Program-made: the position numbers and the translations under genes
The notes under the pieces: model-generated
The model's input: the letters and a program-made list of their open reading frames with translations, nothing else
What the model was told of the DNA's origin: nothing
Database searches by the model: none
Shown: positions 264 to 21,310 of the stretch, piece by piece
Layout: each line of letters begins with the position of its first letter
Numbering within the stretch: the stretch's first letter is position 1
Assembly (NCBI GenBank): GCA_021786105.1
Contig: JAJYNW010000008.1
Coordinates: forward strand, 1-26,703
Direction of reading: 5' to 3'
Length of the DNA stretch: 26,703 bases
Source: a bacterium
Lineage (GTDB): Bacteria > Patescibacteriota > Microgenomatia > Daviesbacterales > UBA10151

Positions 264-851
264 TTAATTAGTAAATTTAAAAGTGGAAATTATATCTGGA
301 TTCGGAGAGGGAAAATTAGAAAGTTTCTTTTCATTTAATAAATCAGGATGCCTATAACTTATCTGATAACCCGCCCCATTATGTAAAACAAACATAACTA
401 TACTAGAACCGCCGGCCTGCTTACCACCTCCGTCAGAAGATTTAACAGCTTGATCACCATTAAAGGTAATATTAGTTAAATCAAATTGTGTAGATCTAAA
501 AGTATTTGTATATGACGCTATAGAATTTAACACGGTTGGTTCAATTTGGAAAAAATCTGAGTTATAAATTGATGAACAATTACTGCAATGTACATTAACT
601 CCATTATTACGGTCATGGTAAACATTCCAGTCTGACGGATATTTAAATGAAACATTTTGATCAGTATATGTTTTCCAATTGGCAACATCTGCAGAACCGG
701 AGGATTCATTTTTAGAAACCGGAGAAGGAGTTGCTTGAATTTGCCGAGACAATGAAACTGGCTTAATTTGTTTTTGATAAATTACATATCCAGCAATTGC
801 TACAGCAATTAAAATTACTACTAAAAGTGGCGCTAGACCTCTCTGATGCAT
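264..851 (-). CDS. Prepilin-like-signal, PsbP-like surface protein (family member 1)
   Basis: QRG|LAPLL hydrophobic N-terminus, Ser/Pro linker, ANWKTYT..VSFKYPSDW, C-terminal IISTFKFTN. Confidence 0.85.
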   Translation of the reverse strand: MHQRGLAPLLVVILIAVAIAGYVIYQKQIKPVSLSRQIQATPSPVSKNESSGSADVANWKTYTDQNVSFKYPSDWNVYHDRNNGVNVHCSNCSSIYNSDFFQIEPTVLNSIASYTNTFRSTQFDLTNITFNGDQAVKSSDGGGKQAGGSSIVMFVLHNGAGYQISYRHPDLLNEKKLSNFPSPNPDIISTFKFTN

Positions 852-857
852 ATTTTC

Positions 858-879
858 AGCATATCATAAATGATATAAT
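858..879. promoter_or_regulatory. Back-to-back extended -10 promoters around an inverted repeat (possible TA operator)
   Basis: Minus: TGaTATGCT, 6 nt, ATG(851). Plus: TGaTATAAT, 6 nt, ATG(886). Palindrome atatcat-aa-atgatat at 861-876. Confidence 0.7.
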
Positions 880-885
880 ACTGTC

Positions 886-1140
886 ATGAAAACAAGAATT
901 GTCAGAAATCCCAAAATTTTGGCCGGCAAACCTGTTATTGCCGGGACTCGAATTCCGGTAGCCCTAATTTTAAATCTGTTAGCTCATGGTCAAACTATTG
1001 GGGAAATCGTGGGCGATTATCCGGATTTAACTGCCGCTGACGTCAAAGCGGCGGTAGAATATGCCCAACATACAGTAGAGAAAACCTATTCTCCTGCTAC
1101 CTCTACTTTACATGAAATTTCTCATAGACGAAGACATTAG
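886..1140 (+). CDS. DUF433-family antitoxin (VapB45-like)
   Basis: NPKILAGKPVIAGTRIPV...EIVGDYPDLT..DVKAAVEYA is the DUF433 signature; overlaps the downstream PIN gene. Confidence 0.92.
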   Translation: MKTRIVRNPKILAGKPVIAGTRIPVALILNLLAHGQTIGEIVGDYPDLTAADVKAAVEYAQHTVEKTYSPATSTLHEISHRRRH

Positions 1141-1501
1141 CCCTAAACTGGCTGGCTTTTTGCATCGGTTAGGACACTCAGCTATTCATATCAGAGACAT
1201 TAAAATTAGTTTAGCGGATGATCAAATTCTCGAATTATCAGTCACGCAAGAATCTATTGTGATAACCGAAGATAAGGATTTTGGTGAACTGGTTTTTAAA
1301 AATACACAATCTGCCAAAGGCGTGATTTTATTGCGATTGGAGGATCAAACAGTACAAAACACTAAAAGAGCGATTAATTGGCTTTTATCAAATTATTCAT
1401 CTAATAGGATCCAAAATCATTTTGTAGTCGTCACAGAAAAATCAGGAAAAATTGCGGCAAGAACAAACCGCTTAAAAAAGCTTGCCAGAAGCATCAATTA
1501 G
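1112..1501 (+). CDS. DUF5615 PIN-like toxin (VapC45-like)
   Basis: MKFLIDEDIS...DDQIL...VITEDKDFGELVF...GVILLRL motifs; paired with DUF433. Confidence 0.92.
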   Translation: MKFLIDEDISPKLAGFLHRLGHSAIHIRDIKISLADDQILELSVTQESIVITEDKDFGELVFKNTQSAKGVILLRLEDQTVQNTKRAINWLLSNYSSNRIQNHFVVVTEKSGKIAARTNRLKKLARSIN

Positions 1502-2120
1502 TGAATTTAAAGGTGGAAAGAATTTGGTCAACCATGTTTATTTTTGCAGATGAAGTAGCGCTGATTTGCAGTGTTCCATTGTCAAGAAGGCTTACCCAAT
1601 AGGATACTTCATTTAATTTATTGCCTCGTTGATCAATAAAATTAATTTTGGCTCCAGGTCGTCCGTCAATATTTAAATCTGCGATCTTTTGGACAGAAAG
1701 AGACTGTGATAACTTTTGTTTCGTACCAATTGGCGCTGTCACCGGCATATCTATTTGATTTGGTGGGTTATACGAGATATCAATTAGATCATATTTTAAG
1801 CTTGGCGAATCTATCCCGTTTTTAATATCCAACTTTTGATCACTAATATAGACATATCTGTTGTCCCCAAGTGTTTGAATATACCAATTTTCTGGATAAT
1901 TAAATTTATATTTATAAGTTTTATTTGTATAAGTTTTCCAATTGGCAGTTTCAGCAGAACTGGAAGATTCATTTTGAGAAACTGGAGATGGGGAGGATTG
2001 AGTTGACTGAGGAACAGGAACAAGCTTAAATTGTTTTTGGTAAATCAAATACCCGCCAACAGCTATCAAAGTTACCAATACCACTATTAATATTGGTGCC
2101 AATCCTTTTTGTCTATTCAT
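1494..2120 (-). CDS. Prepilin-like-signal, PsbP-like surface protein (family member 2)
   Basis: QKG|LAPIL hydrophobic segment, S/P/T linker, ETANWKTYTNKTYKYKFNYPENW, NIDGRPG, DQILSTFKFTN. Confidence 0.88.
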   Translation of the reverse strand: MNRQKGLAPILIVVLVTLIAVGGYLIYQKQFKLVPVPQSTQSSPSPVSQNESSSSAETANWKTYTNKTYKYKFNYPENWYIQTLGDNRYVYISDQKLDIKNGIDSPSLKYDLIDISYNPPNQIDMPVTAPIGTKQKLSQSLSVQKIADLNIDGRPGAKINFIDQRGNKLNEVSYWVSLLDNGTLQISATSSAKINMVDQILSTFKFTN

Positions 2121-2165
2121 TATCTTTAATATATCACTTTGTCTTTTTATTCTGCAATTGACACC

Positions 2166-2283
2166 AAGGGCGTTAAAAAATCGCAGGATTTGCGACTCAG
2201 GGGAACCGGAAACTGACTACCACGACAGTGGAGGAATTTCCGAGGGGAACAGTCCCCGAGGAGCAAAGACAAGATTTTAGCCC
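2166..2283. repeat. Structured ~116-nt repeated element (MITE-like or ncRNA candidate), longer copy
   Basis: 2166-2217 matches 9993-10044 at 50/52 nt. Nested stems: gggcgttaaaa/ttttagccc, tcgca/tgcga, ctcagggga/tccccgag, cggaaa/tttccg, ccac/gtgg. Confidence 0.7.
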
Positions 2284-2288
2284 GACTA

Positions 2289-2687
2289 TCACTTGCAGGA
2301 GTTTTGAACACTTTTGCGACCAAAAGTGTTGTTAAAGAAATATTCTCTGGCTTCTTTTTCATCTTTTTTCATTTGCTTGATTAAATCTTTTGCTGAGGCA
2401 AATTTTTGATTGCCTCGGATTTTTTTTAAAAGTTTAATAGAAATCCATTTACCGTAAATATTTTTGTCAAAATTCAAAACATAGGTTTCGGCCAAGAATT
2501 TTTTTTTATCAAAAGTTTTAGCCGGACCAATAAAAGTGAGTGACGGATATTGTTTATTTCCAATTTTAGTTTGAGAAACATAAATTCCCTCGGGAATATT
2601 TTTGGTTAAATTTATATTAGCAGTAGGGAAACCCAACCTTCTGCCTCTTTGATTATGCTTCCTTACCTTCCCCCAACATTTGTACAT
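2289..2687 (-). CDS. Stand-alone riboflavin kinase (RibF C-terminal domain only)
   Basis: RGRRLGFPTANI, GIY, AETYVLNFDKNIYG, KIRGNQKF..LIKQMKKD; no FAD-synthetase domain. Confidence 0.9.
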   Translation of the reverse strand: MYKCWGKVRKHNQRGRRLGFPTANINLTKNIPEGIYVSQTKIGNKQYPSLTFIGPAKTFDKKKFLAETYVLNFDKNIYGKWISIKLLKKIRGNQKFASAKDLIKQMKKDEKEAREYFFNNTFGRKSVQNSCK

Positions 2688-2688
2688 A

Positions 2689-3645
2689 TTATGGATGATT
2701 GGCTACGTTCCGGTTATGCTCATCCAAGGTTTTGGCATAATAGGAATTTCCTTTTGAATCATGATAGTAATAAAGATAAGGGGTAGAAGAATCAGCCTCA
2801 GCCACTGCTTTCAAAGATGACAATCCCGGGTTAGAAATTGGAGCAGGCGGCAAACCGGCATGAAGATAAGTATTGTATGGTGAATCTATTTTTAGATCAT
2901 CCAAAGTCAAACCCCTTTTCCACCAGCTCTTTTCTCCTTTTTGGTAACCCAAAGCATACTGAACTGTCGCATCAGCATTTAACGCCATACCGATATTAAA
3001 TCTTTTTAAAAGGATTGAGGCCACCATTCTTCTGACATTATCCGAGCGGGCCTCCCGCTCCACAATCGAAGCCAGAATCACCCCCTCTGCCTCGGTTAAA
3101 CCTTTGGCTTTGATTTTTGAGCGTAAATCATCAGTCAAACGGGTATCAAAAGTTTTTTCCAAAGTTTCGGTAATATATCCGGCGGTTGCCTCTTTAGGAA
3201 AAAGATAAGTATCAGGAAACATATAGCCTTCCTTAGCATTTTTCAAAAATTGGCTTTTATCTATTCCCAACTGCTGATTTAACTTTTCCGCCATTTCCTC
3301 CACCCGCCAGCCTTCTATCAAAGTCACCCACGAATCTTCGCTACCGGACTGAAGTTTGCTTATCAGATCCGGAACGGACATGGAAGAAGAAAGCTTGTAT
3401 GAACCGGCTTGAATCTTATCGGCCAGGTTGTTTTGTTTAACGTAAATTTTAAAAGCTAATTCTGATTTGATTAATCCACTGCTTTTCAGCTTTTTGGCAA
3501 TTTCTGACACTCCGGCTCCCTTATTTATCACAAAAACTTGAGTAGTTGTATCGGCGGATACCGGTGCCAACTGACTATCCCACCAGCCTTTAGCCAAAAA
3601 GAACAGCAAAATTAAGATAACAATTAGGGCTAAAATTTTTCTCAT
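2689..3645 (-). CDS. mltG: Endolytic murein transglycosylase MltG
   Basis: N-terminal TM segment, VTLIEGW, EGYMFPDTY, ASIVERE (catalytic Glu), DSPYNTY..GLPPAPISNPG. Confidence 0.96.
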   Translation of the reverse strand: MRKILALIVILILLFFLAKGWWDSQLAPVSADTTTQVFVINKGAGVSEIAKKLKSSGLIKSELAFKIYVKQNNLADKIQAGSYKLSSSMSVPDLISKLQSGSEDSWVTLIEGWRVEEMAEKLNQQLGIDKSQFLKNAKEGYMFPDTYLFPKEATAGYITETLEKTFDTRLTDDLRSKIKAKGLTEAEGVILASIVEREARSDNVRRMVASILLKRFNIGMALNADATVQYALGYQKGEKSWWKRGLTLDDLKIDSPYNTYLHAGLPPAPISNPGLSSLKAVAEADSSTPYLYYYHDSKGNSYYAKTLDEHNRNVANHP

Positions 3646-3656
3646 AATTCCTACCT

Positions 3657-3742
3657 TGTCATTGCGAGCGATTAGCGAAGCAATCTTCCACGGAATAGGT
3701 AGATTGCCACGTCACTCACTTCGTTCGCTCCTCGCAACGACA
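3657..3742. repeat. Complete GTCATTGCGAG-type palindromic element overlapping the ruvX 3' end
   Basis: Arms tgtcattgcgag (3657-3668) and ctcgcaacgaca (3731-3742); inner stem gcaatct/agattgc. Confidence 0.85.
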
Positions 3743-4122
3743 GACCGAGAATCCAAATACTCCTGTAAAATTCCTGCGGCAGAATAGGCATCTTCTTCGC
3801 GACGACGCCCTTTTCGCCGTACACCTTGCTCAATCATCACCGTCAAAGCTTTCTTGCTGGACAAAGTCTCATCGCTAGTTTCCACCTCAAATCCTTTTTT
3901 TCTTAAGGCACTAACAAATCCGGTAACATTTTGACCCATTTTACCTTCCGGCAAACCAACCACGATTTTGTCGAAATTATTATCTTCAATTATTCTTGAA
4001 ATTTTTTCCACCGCATCGGAGAAACCTTTAACCTCCAACACTTGCCAAGGAGAAGCTAGCTCGCCTTCTGAAATAGCCAGGCCTATTTTCCTCAATCCAA
4101 AATCAACGCCTAAATATTTCAC
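3712..4122 (-). CDS. ruvX: YqgF/RuvX pre-16S rRNA nuclease / putative Holliday junction resolvase
   Basis: LGVDFGLRKIGLAIS, IVVGLP, DETLSS, DAYSAAGILQEYLD. Confidence 0.95.
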   Translation of the reverse strand: MKYLGVDFGLRKIGLAISEGELASPWQVLEVKGFSDAVEKISRIIEDNNFDKIVVGLPEGKMGQNVTGFVSALRKKGFEVETSDETLSSKKALTVMIEQGVRRKGRRREEDAYSAAGILQEYLDSRSVVARSERSE

Positions 4123-4131
4123 TCCAAAAGG

Positions 4132-4773
4132 TTATATCATTTTTCCTAAAACAACAAGCCTTTTAAAATTTAGCCCAGGGGGCACACAAGTCATTAGGGA
4201 AATATATCTGCCTTGAGTATCCGGCGCGACTAGCACTGATAAATTAGATGGGTCAACTATTTTAAATTCGGTAACTTCGTACACAAATTTTGATCCCGGG
4301 GTTTCAACGGTAATCTGATCCCCTTTTTTCAAATCGGGCAGTTTGGAAAAAGGCGCGCTTTTAATAGCAAAAAGCGGACTTAAGGCAGAATGACCTGAGA
4401 TAAACACGTTACCTTTTTCTCCAGGCAAGGCAGATCCAGGCAAATGGGCAAAACCTTTTGATAAATCATTGGTATCCACCAAAACATCCTCCTTATCAAT
4501 TTTGAGCTTGGGAATAGAAAGATTAAACTTATCATAGTTAGGGTGAGACTCCCGCAGTTTTGAAGAAACAAAAGCTGGGAAGTTATCTTTATTTTGGACA
4601 GAAATTCCCAAAACCTGCTCGTTTGATCTGGTCGGACTAATCAGAGCTTGGCTTTGATAACTTTGCCCGAGTGCCCAAAACTGGAATGAAATTATCGGCA
4701 AAACCACCTGCATTAGGATAAAAGTTCCGATTGATAAAAAACCGACGGATATCAACTTACCCGGAGCGATCAT
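4132..4773 (-). CDS. Sortase family protein
   Basis: N-terminal TM segment; PGEKGNVFISGH, LKKGDQI, ISLMTCVP..KRLVV provide the His/Cys/Arg triad. Confidence 0.93.
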   Translation of the reverse strand: MIAPGKLISVGFLSIGTFILMQVVLPIISFQFWALGQSYQSQALISPTRSNEQVLGISVQNKDNFPAFVSSKLRESHPNYDKFNLSIPKLKIDKEDVLVDTNDLSKGFAHLPGSALPGEKGNVFISGHSALSPLFAIKSAPFSKLPDLKKGDQITVETPGSKFVYEVTEFKIVDPSNLSVLVAPDTQGRYISLMTCVPPGLNFKRLVVLGKMI

Positions 4774-7103: not shown

Positions 7104-7155
7104 AAAAATTTTGCCTGGAGGTGGCCTGAAATTATCTTAACATAAAATATGCGAG

Positions 7156-9111
7156 TTACACAATTTGTGCCCTGATCCGGCGAACACCGGCCGACACCGC
7201 TTCTTCTTTAGTAATTTTTATCTTACCAATTATGCCTATATGCTCAACGTGTGGTCCACCGCAAAATTCCAAAGAATAATAACCGGCCCGTTCTCTTTGA
7301 TCTTTAGCTTTAGGATCCAAAGCAAACCCTGGTCCGATTCCGTAAATACTCACTTCATTACCATATTTTTCATCAAATAAACCAATCGCCCCAATTTCTT
7401 TGGCCTCTTGGGGAGACACAATTTTCCGCTCCACTTTTAAGTCCTCCTCAATTCTTTTATTGAGAATATCTTCTGTTTGTTTAATTTCTTCATCTGTCAT
7501 TTTCCTATCAAAGGAAAAATCAAACCGCAGCCTTTCGGAAGTAATATTGGAGCCCTTTTGAAAAACCTGCGGTCCCAATACATCCCGCAAAGCCTGGTGC
7601 AGAAGGTGAGTGGCAGTGTGATATTTAGTCACGGTTTCTGAGTGATCTGCCAAACCACCCTTAAACATGCCTGCTGAAGCAGTCCGGGATAACTCGCGGT
7701 GCTTTTCAAACTCTTTTCTAAACTGCTCCCGGTCAATTTCCTGCCCCTTTTGCCTGAATAACTCCTCTGTTACTTCATATGGAAAACCAAAAGTCTGGTA
7801 TAGATCAAACGCCTTTTTGCCGTCAATTTGATCAATTTTCTCAATTTCTTTCAAACCTTTTTCCAAAGTCTTTTCAAATCTTTGCATCTCCTCATCAATT
7901 ACTTTTTTAATCATGTTAATATCAACCTCTTCAAAATACCCTGTACCCTGATATGTTTCTACCACAGCTTCCACCAGATCTGACATTTTATTCATGGCTT
8001 TTAATTTAAATCCGTCGAGAAAATGCATTTCGACCGCTGCTCTTCTTAATAATCTTCTTAAGATATATCCCTGCAGTTTATTTGAGGGTTCAACACCATC
8101 TTTAATTAAAAAGGTTGCCCCTTTTATATGATCGGCAATGATTCTGAAGTTATCTTTTGGTCCTTTGACTCCGTAAACATTGGCAGCCTGTATCAAGCCT
8201 TCTATTGATTTAATGATATCTTTAAATAAATCAGTTTGGCAAATATCTGGTTTATCTCCTGCTGCGGCCGTTAATCTTTCCAGCCCCCCGCCAAAATCTA
8301 CATTCTTTTGATCTAATTCTTTCAAATTTCCATCTGCTTGTTTTTGGTATTGGATAAACACTGAATTGCCAATTTCTAAAAATCTGCCACAATCACAGTT
8401 TGGATGACATGGTTGGTCTTTCCATGGAGATTCCTCATGCAAACCCAAATTAATTCCAAAATCATAAAACACTTCCGAGTCGGGACCACCAATTTCTCCA
8501 GTTGGCATTTTATCTGGACTTCCAGACCTGCTCCACCAATTCTTACTAACTCCATATTGGAAAATTCTCCCTGCTGAAATTTCCAAGGGACTAGTTTCAG
8601 GATTTGTCATATCGACCACTATTGGGGCTATCTTTTCTTTCTCAAAAAGCTTACTCCATTCTGTAACAGAATCAGCATCTAGTCCTAGTTCAAATGTTTT
8701 TCCGTCCGGGGTTACTACTTGAGAATTATTATCTCCTCCAAAAACCGTTACAAAAAGCCGTTCCGGTTTAAGCTCTAATTCTTTAGTTAAAAATTCCCAA
8801 ATCCAAGGTAGTTGCTCTTTTTTAAAGTAGTCGCCCAAAGACCAATTTCCTAACATTTCAAAAAAAGTAGTATGGCGGTTATCACCCACCTCCTCAATAT
8901 CCTCTGCCCGAAAGGAAGGTTGGGAATCCACCAACCTTTTCCCAGCTGGATGAGATTGACCCAACAAATAGGGGACTAATGGCTGCATACCGGAGGAGGT
9001 AAAAAGGGTAGATGGGTCATTTTCCGGTACTAACTTTGCCGGGGCAATTTCCTTATGCCTGCGATCAGTAAAAAACTTAATATATTTTTCCCGAATATCC
9101 TTGGAACTCAT
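7156..9111 (-). CDS. alaS: Alanine--tRNA ligase (short form lacking the C-Ala domain)
   Basis: LFTSSGMQPL, HTTFFEMLGNWS.GDYFK, IIADH, GYILRRLLRR, LYQTFGFP; editing motifs HTATH and FCGGPH. Confidence 0.98.
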   Translation of the reverse strand: MSSKDIREKYIKFFTDRRHKEIAPAKLVPENDPSTLFTSSGMQPLVPYLLGQSHPAGKRLVDSQPSFRAEDIEEVGDNRHTTFFEMLGNWSLGDYFKKEQLPWIWEFLTKELELKPERLFVTVFGGDNNSQVVTPDGKTFELGLDADSVTEWSKLFEKEKIAPIVVDMTNPETSPLEISAGRIFQYGVSKNWWSRSGSPDKMPTGEIGGPDSEVFYDFGINLGLHEESPWKDQPCHPNCDCGRFLEIGNSVFIQYQKQADGNLKELDQKNVDFGGGLERLTAAAGDKPDICQTDLFKDIIKSIEGLIQAANVYGVKGPKDNFRIIADHIKGATFLIKDGVEPSNKLQGYILRRLLRRAAVEMHFLDGFKLKAMNKMSDLVEAVVETYQGTGYFEEVDINMIKKVIDEEMQRFEKTLEKGLKEIEKIDQIDGKKAFDLYQTFGFPYEVTEELFRQKGQEIDREQFRKEFEKHRELSRTASAGMFKGGLADHSETVTKYHTATHLLHQALRDVLGPQVFQKGSNITSERLRFDFSFDRKMTDEEIKQTEDILNKRIEEDLKVERKIVSPQEAKEIGAIGLFDEKYGNEVSIYGIGPGFALDPKAKDQRERAGYYSLEFCGGPHVEHIGIIGKIKITKEEAVSAGVRRIRAQIV

Positions 9112-9130
9112 GAAGCTATTTTAACATTAA

Positions 9131-9955
9131 TTACTGTTTGGACGGAGAATTAAATTTGATTGATGAAATAATTGCTTTTTCTAAAGGCACAACTAAACTA
9201 TTATTTTGATTAAGACTCTCATCTATATAAAGCAAATCTTGATTATTCAGCGGAACAAAAACTCTTTTCCCTACAATCAGTGCTTTTTTATTATTTATCT
9301 CTATTTCTTGCATCTTATCAAAACTCCAAGTTACATGATCTGCATAAACAGGACCACTAACACCATCAGTGCCAGGCCTAACTTTGTAAGTACCAGGCAT
9401 TAATTCTATCGATTTCGGATCTTTAGATAGTAACGCCTGAAGCCAAGCTACGCCAGTTTTGTAACTAGGATGCCTAAAAGGACTTTGCTGAAAATCCTCT
9501 GCTTTAACAATCACAAATCCTACGAAATAATTTATATAATTATGTATCTGAGCTGAAGCAATATACGCATCATGAATATCATCAGAAACTTTACATTGCC
9601 ATTCGGGAGGACACTTAAATAAAAAGCCAGAATGCGTATCAATTTCTTTCCAATTGCTTATATCAATAGGGTCCTTAATTTCTTCAATATAAATTTTCCC
9701 CTCGCCACTCTCACATTGCTTAGGATAACTTTCAACAACTTTACTACCCACAGATTTAATACAATCATTAAAAGTAGCAATAAAAGGAATTTCTGCTGGA
9801 ATAGGTGAGGACTGAGAACTAGAAATAGATTTAAACTGTTTTTGGTAAATTAAATATCCACCAATTATTGCTACAGCTATCAAAATAATTATTAAAATTG
9901 GTGCCAGGCCTTTTTGTTTATTTTTCGCAGAAAAACAGTCCCACGGTTTATTCAC
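9131..9955 (-). CDS. Prepilin-like-signal surface protein with a small Cys module plus a PsbP-like module (family member 3); start re-assigned to GTG 9955
   Basis: QKG|LAPIL segment; TFNDC...VESYPKQC module; SNWKE..FLFKCPPEW; IISSIKF. TGtTATACT lies 7 nt before the GTG; the upstream ORF extension reads through a repeat. Confidence 0.82.
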   Translation of the reverse strand: MNKPWDCFSAKNKQKGLAPILIIILIAVAIIGGYLIYQKQFKSISSSQSSPIPAEIPFIATFNDCIKSVGSKVVESYPKQCESGEGKIYIEEIKDPIDISNWKEIDTHSGFLFKCPPEWQCKVSDDIHDAYIASAQIHNYINYFVGFVIVKAEDFQQSPFRHPSYKTGVAWLQALLSKDPKSIELMPGTYKVRPGTDGVSGPVYADHVTWSFDKMQEIEINNKKALIVGKRVFVPLNNQDLLYIDESLNQNNSLVVPLEKAIISSIKFNSPSKQ

Positions 9956-9992
9956 TAAATTTAGTATAACATTCTTTTTTTGCTTAGAAACA

Positions 9993-10044
9993 AAGGGCGT
10001 TAAAAAATCGCAGGATTTGCGACTCAGGGGAACCACAAACTGAC
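9993..10044. repeat. Partial copy of the 2166-2283 element
   Basis: 42 bp identical to 2166-2207; 50/52 overall. Confidence 0.85.
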
Positions 10045-10085
10045 CGAACGATTAAAGAACTTTTTTATAAGAAAATCTTGCAAGC

Positions 10086-10376
10086 TCACAAGGTTCGCTT
10101 GTAGAATCTTTTGGGTTTAGGTCTTATCATTTTTTGTATCATACTGACAGCTCCGGATACAGCTTGGACTTCTGCATTAGTTACCAAATTGCTGGCCGCT
10201 GCCACTGGTTTTTCCACATCAGAAGCAATATTTTCCCCGGTTTGCAAAATATGGTTAAACTTGTCCAAGCCCTTTTTTAAATCCCGTAAAATAAAAAATA
10301 CTTGGATGCCGGTAATCCCGAGAAAAATTGATAAAAGTAAAATTAAAAAGATAAGGGCAATCTGCAAAAAATCCAT
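10086..10376 (-). CDS. Small membrane-anchored protein (DUF948-like)
   Basis: N-terminal TM segment, helical middle, basic C-terminus; TGaTATATT 8 nt before the ATG. Confidence 0.75.
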   Translation of the reverse strand: MDFLQIALIFLILLLSIFLGITGIQVFFILRDLKKGLDKFNHILQTGENIASDVEKPVAAASNLVTNAEVQAVSGAVSMIQKMIRPKPKRFYKRTL

Positions 10377-10399
10377 GGATTCTTAATATATCACACCTG

Positions 10400-11038
10400 T
10401 TATTTTTTCAGAAATACTGTTTTTTCCACTTTAGTCACCTGACCGGATTTGGAAGTAGCAGTAATTTCGATATTGTTAATATTATCAGTCAGCTTAATTT
10501 CCTGGACAAATTTTCCGGAAGCATCTACCCCGATCTCCTGATTGTTAATGCTTAATTTGGCCTCCGGATCTGTTCTGCCAATTACCTGAATCGTCTCGGA
10601 ATTGGTATTTAATTGGTTGGCCGGCTGGGAAACTTCCAGATATGGTCCCCCCACTAAAAAACGGTATTCAAACCAAAGATAAGCAAAAAATATAATTACC
10701 ATCCCCAAAATTACACTCCCCAAAGCCCGGGCCGGAGTTAACCGAAACTTTTTTTGGTCAACCGGGTTGGTAAAAGTTTCCAAAACCCGGGGCGGATGCT
10801 TAAATTCCGAAAACTCCCTTCGGTATATTGCCAGCAGTTTTTCCTGATTTAAACCCAAAAACTTGCCGTAATTTTTAATAAATCCCTGAACAAAAGTAGG
10901 CGGGGGAAGTTTGTTGTACTGACCGGCTTCTAAAGCTTCCAGTAATTCTTTACGGATTTTGGTGGCTTTTTCAATTTCATCCAGAGTATAAAACTTATTT
11001 TCCCTTTCTTCTTTTAAAACCTGACCAACTGTCCGCAT
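10400..11038 (-). CDS. RodZ-like HTH membrane protein with a C-terminal Ig-like domain
   Basis: VGQVLKEERE..TLDEIEKATKIRKELLEALE.G..LP..FVQGFIKNY HTH, TM helix, beta-rich C-terminus. Confidence 0.88.
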   Translation of the reverse strand: MRTVGQVLKEERENKFYTLDEIEKATKIRKELLEALEAGQYNKLPPPTFVQGFIKNYGKFLGLNQEKLLAIYRREFSEFKHPPRVLETFTNPVDQKKFRLTPARALGSVILGMVIIFFAYLWFEYRFLVGGPYLEVSQPANQLNTNSETIQVIGRTDPEAKLSINNQEIGVDASGKFVQEIKLTDNINNIEITATSKSGQVTKVEKTVFLKK

Positions 11039-11066
11039 ATGATACGGATTTTACCAGAATGACTGA

Positions 11067-11095: not shown

Positions 11096-11102
11096 ACAAC
11101 TA

Positions 11103-11642
11103 ATGTCCGACCAGTCTGTATCGTCCGTACAAAATGATAATTCCGCCCCGCTCCCGCCGCCTGTTGGTGACCCGGAAAAAGCCAGCTATTACACCGATAA
11201 GCTGACTGAACTTGTCAGTACAGACAAATTGACAGTTATGCGCACTGATCTTGCCAAATTTGACCCTACTTCTTTACAGGACCACTATCGGTTGGATCTA
11301 AACGATTACGAAGTAGAGATTAGCCACAATAAACAACCTGATTCAGGCAAAGATTTCTACGTAATGTTATTTAATAACTTAAAGCACATCAGCAACGGCT
11401 GCACAGAAAAAGCTATTCTGGCTTATATCCATATATCAGGGGACCAATTTGCCAAGTTTAAAACTGTAGCAGATGACCAAATTGATAGGAAAAGGAAAGA
11501 AGCCGAGGAAAAAAGATTCAAAGAAGCCATGGCGCCAATTGATCAAGCTCTGGAGCAGCTGAATACAACCAATTCCCAACCAGCAGCCGATAACACTCAA
11601 GCACCAACCAACCACATACCGCCAGTTTTTGCCCAATCCTAA
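11103..11642 (+). CDS. Hypothetical protein
   Basis: 179-aa ORF filling the gap between genes, preceded by a consensus promoter; coiled-coil-like KRKEAEEKRFKE segment. Confidence 0.8.
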   Translation: MSDQSVSSVQNDNSAPLPPPVGDPEKASYYTDKLTELVSTDKLTVMRTDLAKFDPTSLQDHYRLDLNDYEVEISHNKQPDSGKDFYVMLFNNLKHISNGCTEKAILAYIHISGDQFAKFKTVADDQIDRKRKEAEEKRFKEAMAPIDQALEQLNTTNSQPAADNTQAPTNHIPPVFAQS

Positions 11643-12232
11643 ACCTTGAGCTTAAAGCTGCCTTCCCTTAAAACTATCTGCTTACCGTCTTCATATAATT
11701 GCACGATAGTGGAAGGTTTTGATTTTAATTTGCCGCCGTCAACATAAAAAGAGATATCATTACCAAAGTATCTTTTCGCCTCTGTTATAGTTTCCGCCGG
11801 TTTATTCTTTTCCGAGTTGGCACTGGGTGCTACCAGCGGTCCAGCATTTTCTAAAATTTTCAGCAAAGCTTCATTTTTAGGTATCCTAAAGGCCAAACTT
11901 TTTTTACCCCTATGCAAATAGGCAAACTTTTCGGCCGGGCAGGGCAAAATTACGCTGACCGGATTAGGCCAAATCTTTTTCAAAAAATCTTTTTGCTGAT
12001 TAGTTAAAACTATACCAAATTTCTTCAAATCATTTAAAGAAAAAACTAAAATGATCATCGGTTTGGCAATATTCCTTTTCCGCAATTTATAAATTTCTTC
12101 CACTACCGACGGGTTTAACGCCGAACCAACAATGCCATAAATGGTATCCGTCGGCATCACGCCGATTTTACCGTTTTTCAATAAATTGGTAATCTGACCG
12201 ATATTTTCAAAAGTCAAATCAAGCGTATCCAT
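11639..12232 (-). CDS. tsaC: L-threonylcarbamoyladenylate synthase (YrdC/Sua5 domain); start re-assigned to ATG 12232
   Basis: MPTDTIYGI, WPNPVSVI, AFRIP, PLVAPSAN, PSTIV; TGgTACAAT 7 nt before ATG 12232. Confidence 0.93.
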   Translation of the reverse strand: MDTLDLTFENIGQITNLLKNGKIGVMPTDTIYGIVGSALNPSVVEEIYKLRKRNIAKPMIILVFSLNDLKKFGIVLTNQQKDFLKKIWPNPVSVILPCPAEKFAYLHRGKKSLAFRIPKNEALLKILENAGPLVAPSANSEKNKPAETITEAKRYFGNDISFYVDGGKLKSKPSTIVQLYEDGKQIVLREGSFKLKV

Positions 12233-12260
12233 GTGCTCAATTGTACCAAAAACTACAAAA

Positions 12261-12301
12261 GTCATTGCGAGCGAACGAAGCGAACGCGGCAATCTTCCCA
12301 C
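12261..12301. repeat. GTCATTGCGAG-type element, half copy
   Basis: gtcattgcgagcgaacgaagcgaacgcggcaatcttcc matches the left half of 3657-3742. Confidence 0.8.
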
Positions 12302-12353
12302 TAAATATTCCCATTATGTTCACGGTCGTGAATACTTTGGGACAGTTAAAAAC

Positions 12354-12563
12354 TCACTTAACTTGTGTTAAGGAGAAACTTTTGATAGGACACTGAGTTC
12401 TTTCTGGATCTGTTGTTGAATCAGAGAAAAAACAAAAAGGGGTTTTAACTCCATTTCTTATAAGAATCCTGCAATCTTGATCTTTGCAACCGCGCCTCCA
12501 TTTACCTTCCTCAAGCCGTTTCGTAAATTCATCTGTTTCTGCACGAAATTCGCAAGTTTTCAT
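12354..12563 (-). CDS. Small Cys-containing hypothetical protein
   Basis: 69 aa with 5 Cys; TATAAT 8 nt before the ATG, as for other genes in the window. Confidence 0.6.
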   Translation of the reverse strand: MKTCEFRAETDEFTKRLEEGKWRRGCKDQDCRILIRNGVKTPFCFFSDSTTDPERTQCPIKSFSLTQVK

Positions 12564-12595
12564 TTGCGGACATTATACATCTACTTTACGTTCTA

Positions 12596-14704: not shown

Positions 14705-14750
14705 AACTTTATTGTAGCCTACTCCCTATTATACCACACTATAGGATTGA

Positions 14751-16445: not shown

Positions 16446-16455
16446 AATCTCCTTC

Positions 16456-16548
16456 TGTCATTCTGAGCGAAACGAATAATCTCTCACAAATGTGAGATTA
16501 TCAGGAATCTTGGCGAGATCCTTCGTCGCTTCACTCCTCAGGATGACA
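16456..16548. repeat. GTCATTCTGAG/CTCAGGATGAC palindromic element supplying the stop codon of the Lon-like gene
   Basis: Arms tgtcattctgag (16456-67) and ctcaggatgaca (16537-48); inner hairpin taatctctcaca-aa-tgtgagatta. Confidence 0.85.
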
Positions 16549-17560
16549 AATACTCACCCAAGTTTTCGCTCGTTATCCTAAATGGACCACTCCCACTCTC
16601 CACCTGCTTTCTGGCTACTTTCCGGCAGATTGCCTGCAGAGAGCGGGACAAAGACCGAGTGCCCGAATCAAAACCTAAAGGCCGCAAAATCTGCGGCCAA
16701 GCTGCATCATCAATAGTTAATCCGTTTTGATTTATCCCGGCCTCACTGATGGCCTTCGGCAGTAAATAATTTTTGCCAATGGCCAACTTCTCCTCATCCG
16801 AGTAAGAAGGCATCACAATCGGCTCCAGCCTATCCAACACAGCAGTGGCAATATTGCCGGTATTGTTAGCCGTTGCTATAAACAACACCTGGGATAAATC
16901 ATAGGGAAAATCCAAATAATGATCTACAAAAGCCTGGTTTTGGGCCGGATCCAACAACTCCACCAACACCCCCATAATATCCACCCGGTGCTCCGCGGCC
17001 ACCCGATCTATTTCATCCAGCAAAATTACCGGGTTAGAAACTTTAGTAGTTTGAATAGCTTTGATAATTTGGCCGGGTTCGGCGTCTACCCGCATCCTGG
17101 AAGTACCACGGATAGTGGCCGGATCGCCCAAACCGCCAAAAGGAATTCGGGCAATTGGCCGGCCTAAAGATTCAGCAATGGCATAAGCCAAAGAGGTTTT
17201 ACCGGTCCCCACCAAACCAATAAAAGCCAAAATTGGCGCATGAAAATCATTTACCTGCCTGGTTTGCTGGTGCAAAATTAACACTGATAAATATTCTAAA
17301 ATCCGGTCTTTCACTGATTGTAAACCATAATGGTTTTTGTCCAAAATTTGTTTGGCCCGGCTTAAATCTAAAATATCCGGGGCAAGTTTGGAAAAAGGCA
17401 AAGACAGGACAAAATGAACATAATTAATCAAACTTTCTATCTCAGTGCCGGAGCCGGTAAATTTCAAAAGATTAAGCAATTTTTCTTCAATTTCTTGAGG
17501 GAGATTGGCTTGGGTAATATTAATTTTTAACTCTTCAACAACGCTGCGGGCAGAATCCAT
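16538..17560 (-). CDS. LonA-type AAA+ ATPase module without N-terminal or protease domain
   Basis: NHYGLQSVKDRILEYL, Walker A GLVGTGKTS, NPVILLDEID, FVDHYLDFPYDLS.VLFIATAN, LDRLE; ends ITSENLGEYL. Start could be TTG 17572 or ATG 17560. Confidence 0.9.
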   Translation of the reverse strand: MDSARSVVEELKINITQANLPQEIEEKLLNLLKFTGSGTEIESLINYVHFVLSLPFSKLAPDILDLSRAKQILDKNHYGLQSVKDRILEYLSVLILHQQTRQVNDFHAPILAFIGLVGTGKTSLAYAIAESLGRPIARIPFGGLGDPATIRGTSRMRVDAEPGQIIKAIQTTKVSNPVILLDEIDRVAAEHRVDIMGVLVELLDPAQNQAFVDHYLDFPYDLSQVLFIATANNTGNIATAVLDRLEPIVMPSYSDEEKLAIGKNYLLPKAISEAGINQNGLTIDDAAWPQILRPLGFDSGTRSLSRSLQAICRKVARKQVESGSGPFRITSENLGEYLSS

Positions 17561-17727
17561 AATTAGTAACAAACCTTAAAATATAATAATCTAGGTTAGT
17601 AATTATATGATTAAACTACAACTATAGTAAATTACATTACAATAAGTGTGTTAGGTTAAATCATATTTATATTGTATATTTTACCTCAAACGCTATAGTT
17701 TCCCAAGAGGATAATTATTAGACAGAT

Positions 17728-18693
17728 TTAAAAGGAGCTTCTTGCTCCTGTACACATGTATTGAGCTTTCGCTGTTTTAGTTTTGACGTCAACAACACAA
17801 GCTAATCCACAATTACCAGCAACCGGTTTCATTGTTAACCACCACGTTTCAGTATAATCATTGCAATAATCATCCTGATCGGTAAAAGTTCCCTCTTTTA
17901 AACAGTCTGATTGCAATGCAATCTGTTTAGCTTGACTTAAAGAAAGTGCCATATTCGTACTTTGACTTTTGCAAGTTTGGTCAGTTTTTGAATTTTGATC
18001 TAAAAATTTAAAGCTGCTCACAAAACGATCAATGATAGGTTGATCTGGATAATCTAGACCAACTATCAATGACACTCCATGTCCAACAATATACAAACCA
18101 GATAAATTAGGAAAATTAGGATTTGAAAGATCTACAATAGTTGCATCAATGTTTGGAATATTTGCTAATCTTGTTTTAGCTGCCACATTATTCATTTGTT
18201 TTACCAAATCCATTGATGTCCGAGCATCTGATTTAAAAATCTTAATATTAAAACCATCGGGAACTCCAGGGATGGGTTTTTTAGGATCGTAATAAGTTGG
18301 GGTTAGGTATATAAAATCAAGTTTATCAATAGCAATCTCTGGTGGCGTACCCCAAATATACCAATTTTTTGGATAATCAAAAGAAAATCCATATTTTGTA
18401 TTTGTATATGTTTTCCAGTTAGCGGCGTCATCTAAAGGCAAAGTTTGTTTTTGTACCTCTGGAGTTAAAGTCTCATTGTTTTCTGTAACTGTAGGTAAAA
18501 GACTTTGTGAAGTTGAAGATGGTTTAGGAGCAGACTGGGAAATCGGAGAAACTGAAACTTGAGGATTCAAACGAACACCAGTCCTATAGGGCGGGTTCTG
18601 AGTCCGAGATAAATAATATACCCCACCAGCTACTGCTACTAAAACCAGTATTCCAACTAACACATACAATACTGCAAAGCCTTTTTGCTTCAT
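17728..18693 (-). CDS. Prepilin-like-signal surface protein, PsbP-like module plus C-terminal Cys-rich module (family member 4)
   Basis: MKQKG|FAV segment, linker, ANWKTYTNTKYGFSFDYPKNW...SSFKFLDQN, then a 6-Cys module (CNDYTETWW...CGLACVV...MCTG). Confidence 0.88.
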   Translation of the reverse strand: MKQKGFAVLYVLVGILVLVAVAGGVYYLSRTQNPPYRTGVRLNPQVSVSPISQSAPKPSSTSQSLLPTVTENNETLTPEVQKQTLPLDDAANWKTYTNTKYGFSFDYPKNWYIWGTPPEIAIDKLDFIYLTPTYYDPKKPIPGVPDGFNIKIFKSDARTSMDLVKQMNNVAAKTRLANIPNIDATIVDLSNPNFPNLSGLYIVGHGVSLIVGLDYPDQPIIDRFVSSFKFLDQNSKTDQTCKSQSTNMALSLSQAKQIALQSDCLKEGTFTDQDDYCNDYTETWWLTMKPVAGNCGLACVVDVKTKTAKAQYMCTGARSSF

Positions 18694-19845
18694 TTAATCA
18701 AATTTAAAGGTGGATACTATTTTGTCAAACATAGACTCGTTGATAGTTGGCGAGGCAGATGGATTCCATGGCAAATGAGTAATAATAATAAAGGAACCAC
18801 CTTTAGGATTAGGGATTATATACTTTGAATAATGCAGTGTCGCAGGTTCACTCCCTCCCAGTGCTCCCCGGTCTTCCTCCACTTTTATCATCTGAATGTT
18901 ATTAATAGTCACATCCTCTTTTTTACTACTTATTGGGCAATCTTCTTTGCAACCTAAAGTGGGATCTTTATCGCTAGAAGAAATATATATTTGTCCACCT
19001 ATTCGCGCTTCATTTAGCCTATCATCATAGTAAAAAGACATTGTAGCGGGGTATTTAATAGAAAAGTTTACTAAATCAGAAGTATATGTTTTCCAATTAG
19101 AAGTACCTACAGTTTGGTTTTGATCTAAAAACCGAAATGTAGAAAGGATTTGCCTAAATAAATCATCTTGATTTTGGGAACTAATAAGAGCCACATCATA
19201 TATTCGACCATTTTCTACAAAGAAAGAAGCAGATAATATTCCTAATCCATCTGGCTTACCTTCAGTGTAAAACATAGCTTTTATTCCTTTTATAGATATT
19301 TCTTCTTTTTTATTGAATATTCTTCCGTACCAATTTTTCGTGGCAGTTGACTCATGGAATTCTTTCCAATCTTCATATGTACGTAACTTTGGATTTTTAG
19401 CTGTTCGTATTTCTAACCTGAAACCTTTTTTTACCCCGACTATATCGCCACCTTCATGTGGATTCTCGTAATTAGGATCAGGAACATAATCAGGTGATGT
19501 TATATAGATGTCTAAACCGTCATCCTCACGATTTACATCAATAGATTGTTTGATAACCCAAGTCTCAGGATATTTAAAAGTATAATTTTTACCAGTATAA
19601 GTTTTCCAATTAGTAATTTCATCTGAAATTAAGGCAGGTTGTACAGAAGAAACTGGGTGTGGAGTTTGAGAAATAACCTGATTTTGAACTTGAGGTTTAA
19701 TAACTTGGGATTTACCAAAATAAACAAGTTTGTTACTGGCGTAATAATATGCTCCACCGGCTACCATTGCTATTACCAGTATCCCAACTAAAACCAGAAT
19801 TGGAGCAAAACCTTTTTGTTTACACTGAGCATAGTCGAAGTACAT
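18694..19845 (-). CDS. Prepilin-like-signal surface protein with two tandem PsbP-like modules (family member 5)
   Basis: QKG|FAPIL segment; NWKTYT...QILSTFRFLDQN...SNWKTYT...KIVSTFKFD. Confidence 0.88.
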   Translation of the reverse strand: MYFDYAQCKQKGFAPILVLVGILVIAMVAGGAYYYASNKLVYFGKSQVIKPQVQNQVISQTPHPVSSVQPALISDEITNWKTYTGKNYTFKYPETWVIKQSIDVNREDDGLDIYITSPDYVPDPNYENPHEGGDIVGVKKGFRLEIRTAKNPKLRTYEDWKEFHESTATKNWYGRIFNKKEEISIKGIKAMFYTEGKPDGLGILSASFFVENGRIYDVALISSQNQDDLFRQILSTFRFLDQNQTVGTSNWKTYTSDLVNFSIKYPATMSFYYDDRLNEARIGGQIYISSSDKDPTLGCKEDCPISSKKEDVTINNIQMIKVEEDRGALGGSEPATLHYSKYIIPNPKGGSFIIITHLPWNPSASPTINESMFDKIVSTFKFD

Positions 19846-19852
19846 TAATTTT

Positions 19853-19886
19853 AGTATAACATCACTAACTCAATTTGAGATATAAT
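19853..19886. promoter_or_regulatory. Divergent -10 boxes between family member 5 and hicB
   Basis: Minus: TGtTATACT, 7 nt, ATG(19845). Plus: TATAAT, 6 nt, ATG(19893). Small palindrome ctcaa-t-ttgag at 19869-19879. Confidence 0.65.
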
Positions 19887-19892
19887 ACAGAT

Positions 19893-20108
19893 ATGAAAAA
19901 GGTTCATTCGGTTGTTTGGAAAGAAAATAAATGGTACGTGGCTAAAGCTCTGGAAGTAGAGGTTGCAAGTCAAGGTTTAAACGAAAAAGAAGCGTTGGCT
20001 AATCTAAAAGAGGCTTTAGAGTTATACTTTGAAGATCAAGCTAAAGTAGAATTGGCACCTGTAAATAAACCTAAGCTCCAAGATTTAGCCATCCAAGTTC
20101 ATGCCTAA
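19893..20108 (+). CDS. hicB: HicB-like antitoxin (short, no DNA-binding domain); start re-assigned to ATG 19893
   Basis: VVWKE.KWYVA...VASQG...EALANLKEALELYFE. Confidence 0.9.
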   Translation: MKKVHSVVWKENKWYVAKALEVEVASQGLNEKEALANLKEALELYFEDQAKVELAPVNKPKLQDLAIQVHA

Positions 20109-20325
20109 ACTTTATTCTGCCAAAACAATCCTGGCAGCATTACAACGAGCAAATTTTGCTATTATTTCCCAAAAAGGCAGCCATATTAAATTGCACAAAA
20201 GAGAAAACAATAAGATTTTAACCGTAATTGTTCCCAATCATAAAGAAATCGCCATTGGAACATTTATGAGCATCTTAAAACAAGCTGATATGACCAGAAA
20301 AGAATTGGAGAAATTTATTAGGTAA
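20101..20325 (+). CDS. hicA: HicA family toxin
   Basis: F.IISQKGSHIKL...VIVPNHKEIAIGT..SILKQA. Confidence 0.93.
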   Translation: MPKLYSAKTILAALQRANFAIISQKGSHIKLHKRENNKILTVIVPNHKEIAIGTFMSILKQADMTRKELEKFIR

Positions 20326-21310
20326 TCACTGGGTAAATTTAAATGTGGAAAGAATTTGGTCAATATATTCTCTGGTTTTCCCTTCAACTTCTGCACCTTC
20401 TCCAGCTAAACCATTCAGTTTAAAGGTATAGATAGACTAAATGGTTCGATACCATCTTCTGTAGCAAGACCAGCTTTGTAAGTACGTTCGATTACAACAT
20501 CCGTTAGTAGCCATTTCGGCCTGGGGTTTGATTTTTCATTAAATTCTTGCATATACACCTTCGTGTTTTCATCTGGAGGATATTTAATACTAAACAAACC
20601 TTGAGGATCTTTATATGTTTTCCAGTTGGCCCCGATTAAATCGGGGTTGGCAGTTTCATTGTTTGAATTTTGATCTAAAAATTTAAAGGTTGAAATGATT
20701 TTACTGTTCAAACTCTCCGGCTTTCTGTTTGAGGTGGTGCGTATTTGAAGATAGTTATTGTCTTTATAAGGCAAAAAGGTATACCGAGTAAAATAAAAAC
20801 CGCTAGCAAATTCATATCCTGATAAACCATTAATAACAACAGGTACAGGTTTTTGAAGAGGTGGATTAGTATTACCATTGAGTTCTTTAGTAACAAATCC
20901 TGCAACGTTTTACCTTCTAGTGACCCAAAATAAAAAGAGATCTCGCCATCAACCCAATTGCCACTCTCAGAAACCAAAGGGTAACTTGGATCAGGCGTTG
21001 GAGTAGGAGTTAACCTGACAGGATCAACTATATCAACAGAACCATAGGAGCTTTAGCGAACAACAAAATTGGGAGGATATCTAAAACTAAAAATTTTATT
21101 TGGGTCGGTATAGGTTTTCCAATTTCTAGTTTCATCTGAGGATGAAGTTGATGATGGTACGGGTTTAGATGCTTGAGAGACAGTCTGATTTTGAATCTTG
21201 GGACTAGAGTTTTTAGTGGTTCCAAAAAAATATGCTCCACCAGCCACCGATACCAATATCACTATCCCAACCAAAATTAAAATTGTCGCAAAGCCTTTTT
21301 GATAAAACAT
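20326..21310 (-). pseudogene. Disrupted two-module member of the prepilin-signal/PsbP-like family (member 6)
   Basis: Starts MFYQKG|FA; in-frame TAA at 21053-55; 1-nt frameshift near 20895-97; second frameshift near 20425-20437; ends DQILSTFKFTQ-TGA at 20326. Confidence 0.85.
20625..20651. repeat. 15-bp palindrome flanked by a 6-bp direct repeat (in-frame micro-insertion)
   Basis: gttggc-cccgatt-a-aatcggg-gttggc; converts ETANWKT to ETANPDLIGANWKT. Confidence 0.8.

Follow-up and report, generated by a model that had tools for sequence, protein, structure and literature searches.

Integrase-free hot spots that lack mobile elements, and that are accompanied by recombination in the flanking core genes, are described in the parts considered here of the study by Oliveira, Touchon, Cury and Rocha (2017; PMC5635113). 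Toxin-antitoxin (TA) genes are also known from variable DNA, hicAB being given in the excerpt we use as widespread in highly variable regions of ANME-1 archaea (PMC13385816), and microbes with reduced genomes have been hypothesised, in the portion of PMC12455944 that we draw on, to largely lack classical defence systems. Here we describe 26,703 nucleotides (nt) from the genome of an ultra-small groundwater member of the Patescibacteriota (Microgenomatia, Daviesbacterales; contig JAJYNW010000008.1 of assembly GCA_021786105.1), hereafter the window, which is the whole 26.7-kb contig C11 of genome G000 in our numbering (1.04 Mb, 26 contigs, 92% complete). Two TA pairs, hicBA and DUF433/DUF5615, lie there among members of one family of putative surface proteins, hereafter the paralogs. 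The original prediction saw in this arrangement a candidate integrase-free cassette array, in which the conserved ends of the paralogs would act as anchors for homologous recombination, and the interval between them as a slot for exchangeable cargo.

We find that a paralog-anchored cassette array is not supported. The reading we prefer, to which we assign a probability of about 0.58, is that the two TA pairs and the paralogs share integrase-free turnover hot spots between core genes, and that hicBA has resided there for a long time. The region downstream of pnp was fetched from 17 relatives, of which 16 were usable, and in all 16 of these genus loci the order pnp, Lon-like gene, RNase J, FtsK, and onwards to a gene of 96 amino acids (aa) and alaS, is kept. 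All of our comparisons are between species, with no strain-level breakpoints observed, and the gene calls at the compared loci are simple open reading frame (ORF) calls. Three intervals of this block vary in content. On the right, the borders are pnp, encoding polynucleotide phosphorylase (22507-24837, minus strand), and a Lon-like AAA+ gene (16538-17572, minus strand), with orthologues in 16 relatives; in the middle, the 96-aa gene (10086-10376) and alaS (7156-9111, minus strand); and on the left, the riboflavin kinase gene (2289-2687, minus strand; PF01687, 117.8 bits), likewise with orthologues in 16 relatives. A frame of ~1100 aa follows the riboflavin kinase interval in most of the 15 relatives compared there, and its G000 orthologue opens contig C19, which indicates that C11 and C19 are neighbours; orthology of this large gene was checked for G001 only.

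The contents of these intervals differ from genome to genome across the 11 to 16 species compared. Between pnp and the Lon-like gene, 8 of 16 relatives have nothing, 4 have family paralogs only and 4 have other contents, the single cases being family members with a Bro-N gene in G009, a remnant only in G015, an inverted RHH/PIN_3 pair without a paralog in G003, and a family pseudogene with a PIN_3 toxin in G016. The riboflavin kinase flank (15 relatives) is empty in 5, holds family members in 2, dockerin-type proteins in 2 and other or unknown genes in 3, and in single genomes an inverted AbiEii/DUF6922 pair (G015), a Fic gene (G013) or a Bro-N gene (G017), the AbiEii/DUF6922 and Fic cases both being free of paralogs. 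The interval between the 96-aa gene and alaS (11 relatives) is empty in 7, and holds HicBA alone in 2 (G007 and G013), HicBA with a paralog in G005 and a paralog in G003; in G000 it holds a minus-strand paralog at 9131-9928, with no TA pair beside it. At least five toxin-type modules (HicBA, DUF433/DUF5615, RHH/PIN_3, AbiEii and Fic) thus use these intervals. As the cargo of these intervals varies and may or may not include paralogs, it is core genes that define the slots, and not, as had been proposed, the ends of paralogs.

Some further genes near these borders may be recorded here. In four relatives, the opposite strand carries a DUF5615-type toxin gene no more than ~1 kb from the start of pnp (G010:C32:10940-11263, G016:C37:17785-18102, G003:C1:114783-115064 and G001:C10:8880-9200), and none is found there in G000. 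Bro-N genes stand among paralogs in the pnp/Lon-like interval of two organisms, and also after the riboflavin kinase gene in G017 (L047:2124-2972, L004:2284-3111 and L037:615-1163). The Bro-N domain is typical of phages, and these genes point to phage-derived or defence-related traffic through the intervals.

Under our preferred reading, accessory genes would come and go in three short intervals of a conserved core block. One part of the cargo would be a fast-evolving, membrane-anchored and probably extracytoplasmic family with a PsbP/Mog1 fold, subject to tandem duplication and to decay into pseudogenes, and the other part would be type II TA modules, of several kinds unrelated to one another and each with its own promoter, both parts collecting where a compact, mostly one-strand genome tolerates insertions (nearly all genes of the window are on the minus strand). 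By analogy with the published integrase-free hot spots, turnover would most likely proceed by homologous recombination in flanking core genes, together with local duplication and deletion. A hint of such recombination comes from pnp itself, the identity of which to the G000 gene is 88-92% in six species and 72-76% in the rest, as against a uniform 79-83% in G003, G005, G007 and G016 when the Lon-like and RNase J genes are compared. The hicBA pair would be an old resident of core-like divergence that stayed linked to its neighbouring paralog while that paralog diverged, and the DUF433/DUF5615 pair a separate, species-specific arrival.

In the right interval, a hicB-like antitoxin gene (19894-20108, plus strand, 71 aa; DUF7387, 33.1 bits against a cut-off of 27.9) overlaps by 8 nt the toxin gene hicA (20101-20325, plus strand, 74 aa; PF07927, 58.1 bits against a cut-off of 27). 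By domains and gene arrangement this is a predicted HicAB type II TA pair, and the two genes are kept together in 5 relatives and in many metagenome contigs; Pfam finds no DNA-binding domain in the window's HicB. Alignment of orthologues places the hicB start at ATG 19894 rather than TTG 19875, and the spacer that separates it from the divergent paralog is consequently 48 nt long (19846-19893). Within this spacer, a TAGTATAAC box adjoins the start of the paralog and a GATATAAT box stands 7 nt upstream of the hicB ATG; both are putative promoter elements. The divergent paralog (18694-19845, minus strand, 383 aa) has two domains, with profile matches at 19123-19827 and 18700-19104, and directly abuts (18693/18694) a further paralog of 321 aa (17728-18693, minus strand), which carries an extra Cys-rich C-terminal part and matches PsbP_2 at 27.8 bits (cut-off 27).

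On the other side of hicBA, the minus-strand gene at 20326-21310 meets the hicA stop with a gap of 0 nt. The original prediction placed both TA pairs between paralogs, and while its coordinates for the layout hold at both loci, this neighbour is a decayed two-domain member of the family, a pseudogene interrupted in frame by a TAA at 21053-21055 and frameshifted twice, near 20900-20920 and again near 20415, ending in ...DQILSTFKFTQ and a stop that abuts that of hicA. Contigs from three sequencing runs (X1, X3 and X5, from two studies) match 18782-22673 exactly, with 0 differences, and because they reproduce the stretch the breaks are not an assembly error, with the proviso that two of the three runs may be the source of the assembly and that run contigs are unable to reveal rare variants. 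Joints in such contigs (e.g. 18381>19581 and 18695>20335) were considered as deletions and rejected: their sides comprise 21-48 nt on conserved family motifs, they come from contigs of other depth, and we read them as other paralogs or other organisms. A further run, X6, contained 0.07 of the words and yielded short pieces only. Beyond the pseudogene, and again abutting (21310/21312), lies a minus-strand gene (21312-22475, no Pfam match) for a protein with the family's QKGFAP N-terminus and an unrelated C-terminal part; the ORF extends over 21312-22706, yet its start is probably near 22475 (MAQKGF...), and its likeness to the family is limited to the N-terminus. The original observation that paralogs simply abut where no TA pair intervenes is thus borne out.

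In the left interval, a DUF433 antitoxin-like gene (886-1140, plus strand, 84 aa; PF04255, 85.7 bits against a cut-off of 23.6) and a DUF5615/PIN-like toxin gene (1112-1501, plus strand, 129 aa; PF18480, 86.3 bits) overlap by 29 nt, and domain content and overlap make them a putative TA pair, the pairing of which recurs in G016 and G017. The antitoxin-like gene diverges, across a 34-nt spacer (852-885), from a minus-strand paralog of 195 aa (264-851; A1 profile, E 2.4e-46; weak PsbP_2 match), in which a QRGLAP N-terminal membrane helix and a Ser/Pro linker precede an NWKTYT...STFKF domain. The toxin gene converges on a paralog of 208 aa (1494-2120, minus strand), the two stops overlapping by 8 nt (1494-1501). 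The DUF5615 gene is the only one in G000, its nearest counterpart among the compared genus relatives being the G016 copy, which is 40% identical and lies at an unrelated locus without paralogs, and a broad scan of genome contigs with it returned only distant relatives of other phyla, at no more than 45% identity. A separate observation concerns G001, where two overlapping opposite-strand frames of 61 and 73 aa (L024:2862-3258) occupy the position equivalent to that of the DUF433/DUF5615 pair, with a family paralog on one side and the large downstream gene on the other; neither frame matches Pfam, and the two may be an unrecognised TA-like pair.

The original case for a common slot leaned on the likeness of the junctions at the two loci. 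The 8-nt overlap and the 0-nt gap are exactly as described, and of the divergent spacers, which had been put at 34-47 nt, the left one stands at 34 nt and the right one becomes 48 nt with the corrected hicB start. Such junctions are nevertheless not special. In a crude call of 1061 G000 genes, the genes of the 163 convergent pairs are separated by a median of 11 nt, 34% of these pairs abutting or overlapping (gap of 0 or less), and 27% of the 158 divergent pairs are separated by 50 nt or less; an unrelated pair within the window (11103-11642, plus strand, and 11639-12301, minus strand) likewise overlaps, by 4 nt. Stop-to-stop abutment and spacers of 34-48 nt are therefore G000's normal gene packing.

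A second argument for anchors was the presence of 19 identical base pairs (bp) at the ends of the two paralogs that face the toxins (1513-1531 and 20345-20363). The match is real and lies inside a 39-nt repeat, in which this pair of copies is 87% identical; the repeat has four copies, at 67-87% identity, and a second paralog-end repeat of 83 nt reaches 63-76%. However, the 19 bp encode the D-Q-I-L-S-T of a C-terminal consensus found throughout the genus. Seven carriers of DQILST, drawn from G000 and the fetched loci, form 21 pairs, each of which agrees at 13-17 of the 18 nt, and one cross-species pair shares 17 of 18, equal to the G000 pair. Since any pair of DQILST-coding ends shares this much, the match reflects conservation of the motif plus codon bias, and by this comparison the identity is not evidence of recent exchange. 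Neither tight junctions nor short identical stretches of paralogs, both of which are normal in G000, should be read as recombination sites.

The remark that no integrase or attC site is visible in the window agrees with our searches. A whole-genome search of the 92% complete G000 for tyrosine recombinases (PF00589) finds two, on contigs C12 and C15, and none on the window contig. An inverted-repeat search of the window gives six pairs, none of which flanks either TA module, and no attC-like repeats. A mobile element or prophage remnant was considered and rejected: Bro-N genes do occupy the intervals in relatives, but the window itself shows no gene for a phage protein, a transposase or a recombinase, PF00589 being the only such family searched for genome-wide. 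Rfam and tRNA scans of the window returned no match, and it therefore contains no tRNA-type integration site.

The history of the hicBA pair can be followed beyond the window. Close relatives of its HicA and HicB proteins (phmmer E ~1e-33 to 1e-41) are encoded by 5 of the 18 genus relatives: in G005, G007 and G013 in the 96-aa-gene/alaS interval, in G003 at a locus syntenic to ~10-19 kb of G000 contig C21, where G000 has only a broken paralog, and in G016 at a locus syntenic to ~30-38 kb of C21, where G000 has nothing. A scan of metagenomes yielded 80 HicA loci, which we divided into a close group (identity of at least 73%; 15 loci on 12 distinct contigs) and a distant group (identity of 52-70%; 63 usable loci). 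In the close group the neighbours are mostly on the opposite strand (upstream in 10/12, downstream in 14/15), whereas in the distant group they are mostly on the same strand (38/57 and 42/54) and never belong to the family (0/57 upstream, 0/54 downstream). Loci L047-L049, three contigs of the close group that share one gene map, show the same pnp/Lon-like interval as the window; they come from a more distant organism (pnp 64%, Lon-like gene 62%, HicB 77% and HicA 74% identical) and run pnp, DUF2283, paralog, inverted HicBA, paralog, Bro-N, paralog, Lon-like gene.

Across the genus, HicB and HicA are 73-89% identical, which is comparable with the 79-83% of the Lon-like and RNase J genes, whereas the paralogs that flank them are mostly only ~26-30% identical outside the motifs, with the exception of one orthologous group of downstream paralogs (L040, L044, L046 and L050) at 52-66%. 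This core-like identity beside fast-changing paralogs indicates that hicBA is an old resident, and not the exchangeable cargo that had been envisaged. One of the outcomes that the original prediction had named as refuting it, breakpoints outside the conserved anchors, is also seen in four of the species compared. In alignments of HicBA loci, similarity begins at a -10-like box that precedes the hicB ATG by a few bases and, in G005, G007, G013 and G016, ends at the hicA stop codon.

A competing explanation, which narrows the original model, is that hicBA itself moves, by recombination or gene conversion between the conserved coding ends of paralogs, and hence always lands between or beside members of the family. 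The lineage is indeed found in the pnp/Lon-like interval (G000, L047-49), in the 96-aa-gene/alaS interval (G005, G007, G013, L045, L051) and at loci syntenic to ~10 kb (G003) and ~33 kb (G016/L040) of C21, and the flanking paralogs are mostly non-orthologous across these contexts. G000 and G003 have in common the final ~30 nt of the convergent paralog (...ILSTFKFTQ and the stop); from that end, similarity between these two loci continues through hicA, hicB and the spacer into the first codons of the following paralog, and then fades. However, the same pattern is expected if only the motifs are selected while the paralogs otherwise diverge, and the shared ends are short and diverged (the 39-nt and 83-nt repeats above). 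RecA-type exchange usually needs longer near-identity than such ends offer. The coincidence of the limit of similarity with the hicA stop in four relatives also speaks against paralog-guided movement, as does the presence of HicBA without a paralog in G007, G013, L041 and L053, and the orthology of the downstream paralogs in L040, L044, L046 and L050 fits vertical inheritance of a linked block. We therefore regard relocation guided by paralogs as unlikely, although it is the strongest of the competitors to turnover between core genes.

Two observations on HicA stand apart from this argument. A second, more distant HicA (35 bits), with a 117-aa partner of no known family, is present in G016 and in a metagenome twin (L019:8906-9477 / L040:1901-2472), where it lies between two further paralogs of the array and in the same direction as they do. 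A DNA comparison meant to show whether G000 lost HicBA from C21 by deletion between paralogs (C21:9301-11000 against the G003 locus) gave one 27-nt match only, the two species being too diverged for it.

Does the company of TA pairs and paralogs exceed chance? A census of seven toxin families at Pfam curated cut-offs finds HicA (C11), DUF5615 (C11) and ParE (C22) in G000, plus a sub-threshold HicA-like frame on C2. Among the 18 relatives, 4 of 48 HicA genes have a family match no more than 600 nt away, where 0.3-0.6 would be expected, and all four belong to the window's HicBA lineage or to the same G016 cluster; of 24 DUF5615 genes, 0 are this close under a strict family threshold and 1 under a lenient threshold (0.2-0.4 expected). 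Because the genomes are related, these counts are not independent. The enrichment of TA pairs beside the family, which the original prediction requires, thus holds for one HicBA lineage, where family flanks recur in the same inverted arrangement in G003, G005 and G016 and at least one is present in 10 of the 12 distinct close contigs, and fails for TA pairs in general.

Several of our results nonetheless weigh against simple turnover between core genes, and we bring them together here. In G000, 2 of the 3-4 toxins lie between paralogs while only ~5 of ~1060 junctions are flanked by the family, so that the naive probability of the arrangement is ~1e-4, and co-location in this genome does exceed chance. 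In the close metagenome group, a family gene lies upstream of HicBA in 9/12 cases and downstream in 11/15, the lineage occurs at four or more loci, three of them with paralogs on both sides, and G000 and G003 share an identical 0-nt junction at loci that are not homologous. This flanking far exceeds what co-residence in hot spots obviously predicts. In addition, the null expectation of a few permissive sites is a qualitative one, and recombination at the core flanks, although the most likely route, is drawn by analogy. The association of hicBA with the family, across species and at least four loci, is real, strong and specific; it may reflect inheritance as a linked block, relocation guided by paralogs, or a role in stabilising the array against deletion. 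One old hicBA lineage thus keeps company with one surface family across species and loci. A broader proposal, that this lineage is tied to a hypervariable surface family, relocating through its members or with a neighbouring paralog and locking paralogs against deletion, seems to us improbable on the present balance. If true, it would amount to a TA-guarded, integrase-free system that keeps and shuffles a surface repertoire in a genome almost without other mobile machinery.

The stabilising role may be considered on its own. Unequal recombination between paralogs would remove the antitoxin and thereby kill or arrest the cell, so that a TA pair would protect the array in which it lies. A stabilising role for TA pairs in chromosomal integrons is published, in the part of the source used here (PMC13108822). 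In the window, both pairs lie between direct-repeat paralogs that share similar stretches of 39-183 nt, and at the pnp/Lon-like interval HicBA is kept between paralogs both in G000 and in a distant species with 64% pnp identity. Such protection would, however, sit uneasily with the tandem family arrays free of TA pairs that are common in relatives (G012:C5, G006:C12, G004:C52, G011:C6), with the loss of every paralog from the pnp/Lon-like interval in half of the relatives, and with the decay of the very paralog beside hicA in G000; moreover, the toxin activity of both pairs is a prediction from their domains. We consider this explanation less probable again than relocation.

A last alternative concerns expression rather than gene content, namely that the compact back-to-back promoter region lets the state of the TA pair co-control expression of a variable surface protein. 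A TAGTATAA(C/T) box lies 1-3 nt from the paralog start and 21-48 nt from the hicB ATG in G000, G003, G005/L051 and G016/L040, the box and the first codons of the next paralog being common to G000, G003, G005 and G016, and in G005/L051 a single box serves both directions. Yet the same box also precedes paralog 9131-9928, which has no TA pair beside it, and consequently it would appear to belong to the paralog's own promoter; in addition, this HicB has 71 aa, and Pfam detects no DNA-binding domain in it. Coupling of this kind is, in our opinion, the least credible of the alternatives and very improbable.

Turning to the paralogs themselves, the family is defined by an N-terminus reading Q-K-G-F/L-A-P, followed by a hydrophobic helix, a linker rich in Ser, Pro and Thr, and a domain that opens with (A)NWKTYT and ends in DQILSTFKF followed by one or two further residues. 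There are ~12-13 members in G000, including 7 on the window contig, and each of the 18 other species of the genus also has the family, at 2-14 profile matches per species and often in tandem. At least three G000 members are broken (20326-21310, C21:10139-10782 and a fragment at C14:14779-14997), and broken members are also seen in relatives (G009:C8:1706-2263, G016:C37:13208-13906). These frequent stops and frameshifts suggest that members of the family arise and decay rapidly, or possibly that they are switched.

Of six paralogs, one reaches the cut-off for PsbP_2 (PF18933; the 27.8-bit match noted above), three score 16-24 bits and two have no match. An AlphaFold2 model of the protein encoded at 1494-2120, built from 13 sequences, is of medium confidence (predicted local distance difference test 64.7, predicted template modelling score 0.52) and begins with a helix, from which a disordered linker leads to a beta-sheet domain that carries a C-terminal helix. 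The top Foldseek matches in the PDB are PsbP-type proteins, CyanoP and PsbP (E 6e-5 to 8e-4, template modelling scores 0.37-0.55), with yeast Mog1 and mycobacterial Apa and MTC28 lower down (overall E 6e-5 to 7e-3, template modelling scores 0.4-0.55). We thus predict a PsbP/Mog1-like fold behind the N-terminal helix, and because the Foldseek matches agree with the weak PsbP_2 matches, a surface or extracytoplasmic location is a reasonable inference from the model. A type IV pilin reading of QKGFAP finds no counterpart in Pfam, which gives no pilin or N-methylation match among the proteins of the window. By Foldseek, the domain resembles the fold of the PsbP/Mog1p proteins CyanoP (2lnj, 2xb3), Apa (5zx9) and MTC28 (4pws), and with the last of these, listed as 'secreted proline rich antigen MTC28', the paralogs have in common an N-terminal export or anchor segment and a Pro/Ser-rich linker. 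Unlike those proteins, to which sequence similarity is marginal, the paralogs bear a QKGFAP N-terminus and a C-terminal STFKF that are specific to their lineage.

Read from right to left, the core genes of the window comprise an rpsO-like gene, pnp, the Lon-like AAA+ gene, RNase J, FtsK and several small genes, followed by a RodZ-like HTH gene, the 96-aa gene, alaS, a gene of 777 aa, YceG/MltG and riboflavin kinase. A non-coding repeat element of ~150 nt lies between the riboflavin kinase gene and paralog 1494-2120 (2121-2300, minus strand), outside the TA slot, and marks the edge of the interval. G000 has four copies at 76-96% identity (2121-2300, a partial copy at 9987-10044, C22:128-225 and C21:532-684), of which the two on C11 lie just upstream of paralogs 1494-2120 and 9131-9928. 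The element is conserved at 93%, against 73% for the adjoining coding sequence, and has a folding z of -2.7 and a hairpin and T-run at its end. Rfam contains no match to it, and it could represent a small RNA or a repeat that bears a terminator.

Genomes of CPR (candidate phyla radiation)/Patescibacteria are tiny and gene-dense, and a 26.7-kb block with three micro-hot-spots shows where such genomes vary. How far, then, does this block resemble systems that are already described? With the superintegron of Vibrio and the sedentary chromosomal integrons, as portrayed in the part of PMC13108822 considered here, it has in common self-promoted TA pairs among an array of small genes, for which a stabilising role is conceivable. 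Unlike integrons, however, the window contig has neither IntI nor attC-like inverted repeats, similarity between HicBA loci ends at the borders of reading frames, and in place of unrelated promoterless cassettes the neighbours are paralogs of one another, each with a -10-like box before its start codon. On these defining features an integron-like array is excluded, IntI and attC-like repeats being absent and the neighbours being paralogs with their own promoters. The hicAB genes of ANME-1 archaea resemble the window's pair as residents of variable regions in uncultivated microbes known from metagenomes, although these belong to another domain of life and no link to a paralogous surface family is described in the passages of PMC13385816 considered. 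The closest likeness is to the integrase-free hot spots introduced above. As far as the parts of PMC5635113 considered here describe them, those hot spots differ in that the intervals of the window hold 0-5 genes, in a streamlined 1-Mb genome that is compared at the level of species, and much of the cargo is one lineage-specific family of paralogs. They agree in having the same core-gene borders around varying content, high turnover, no recognisable integrase or mobile element, cargo enriched in defence-like and surface genes and, in the case of pnp, a hint of discordant divergence in a flanking core gene. On this comparison, the window looks like a set of ordinary gene-turnover hot spots rather than a new cassette system.

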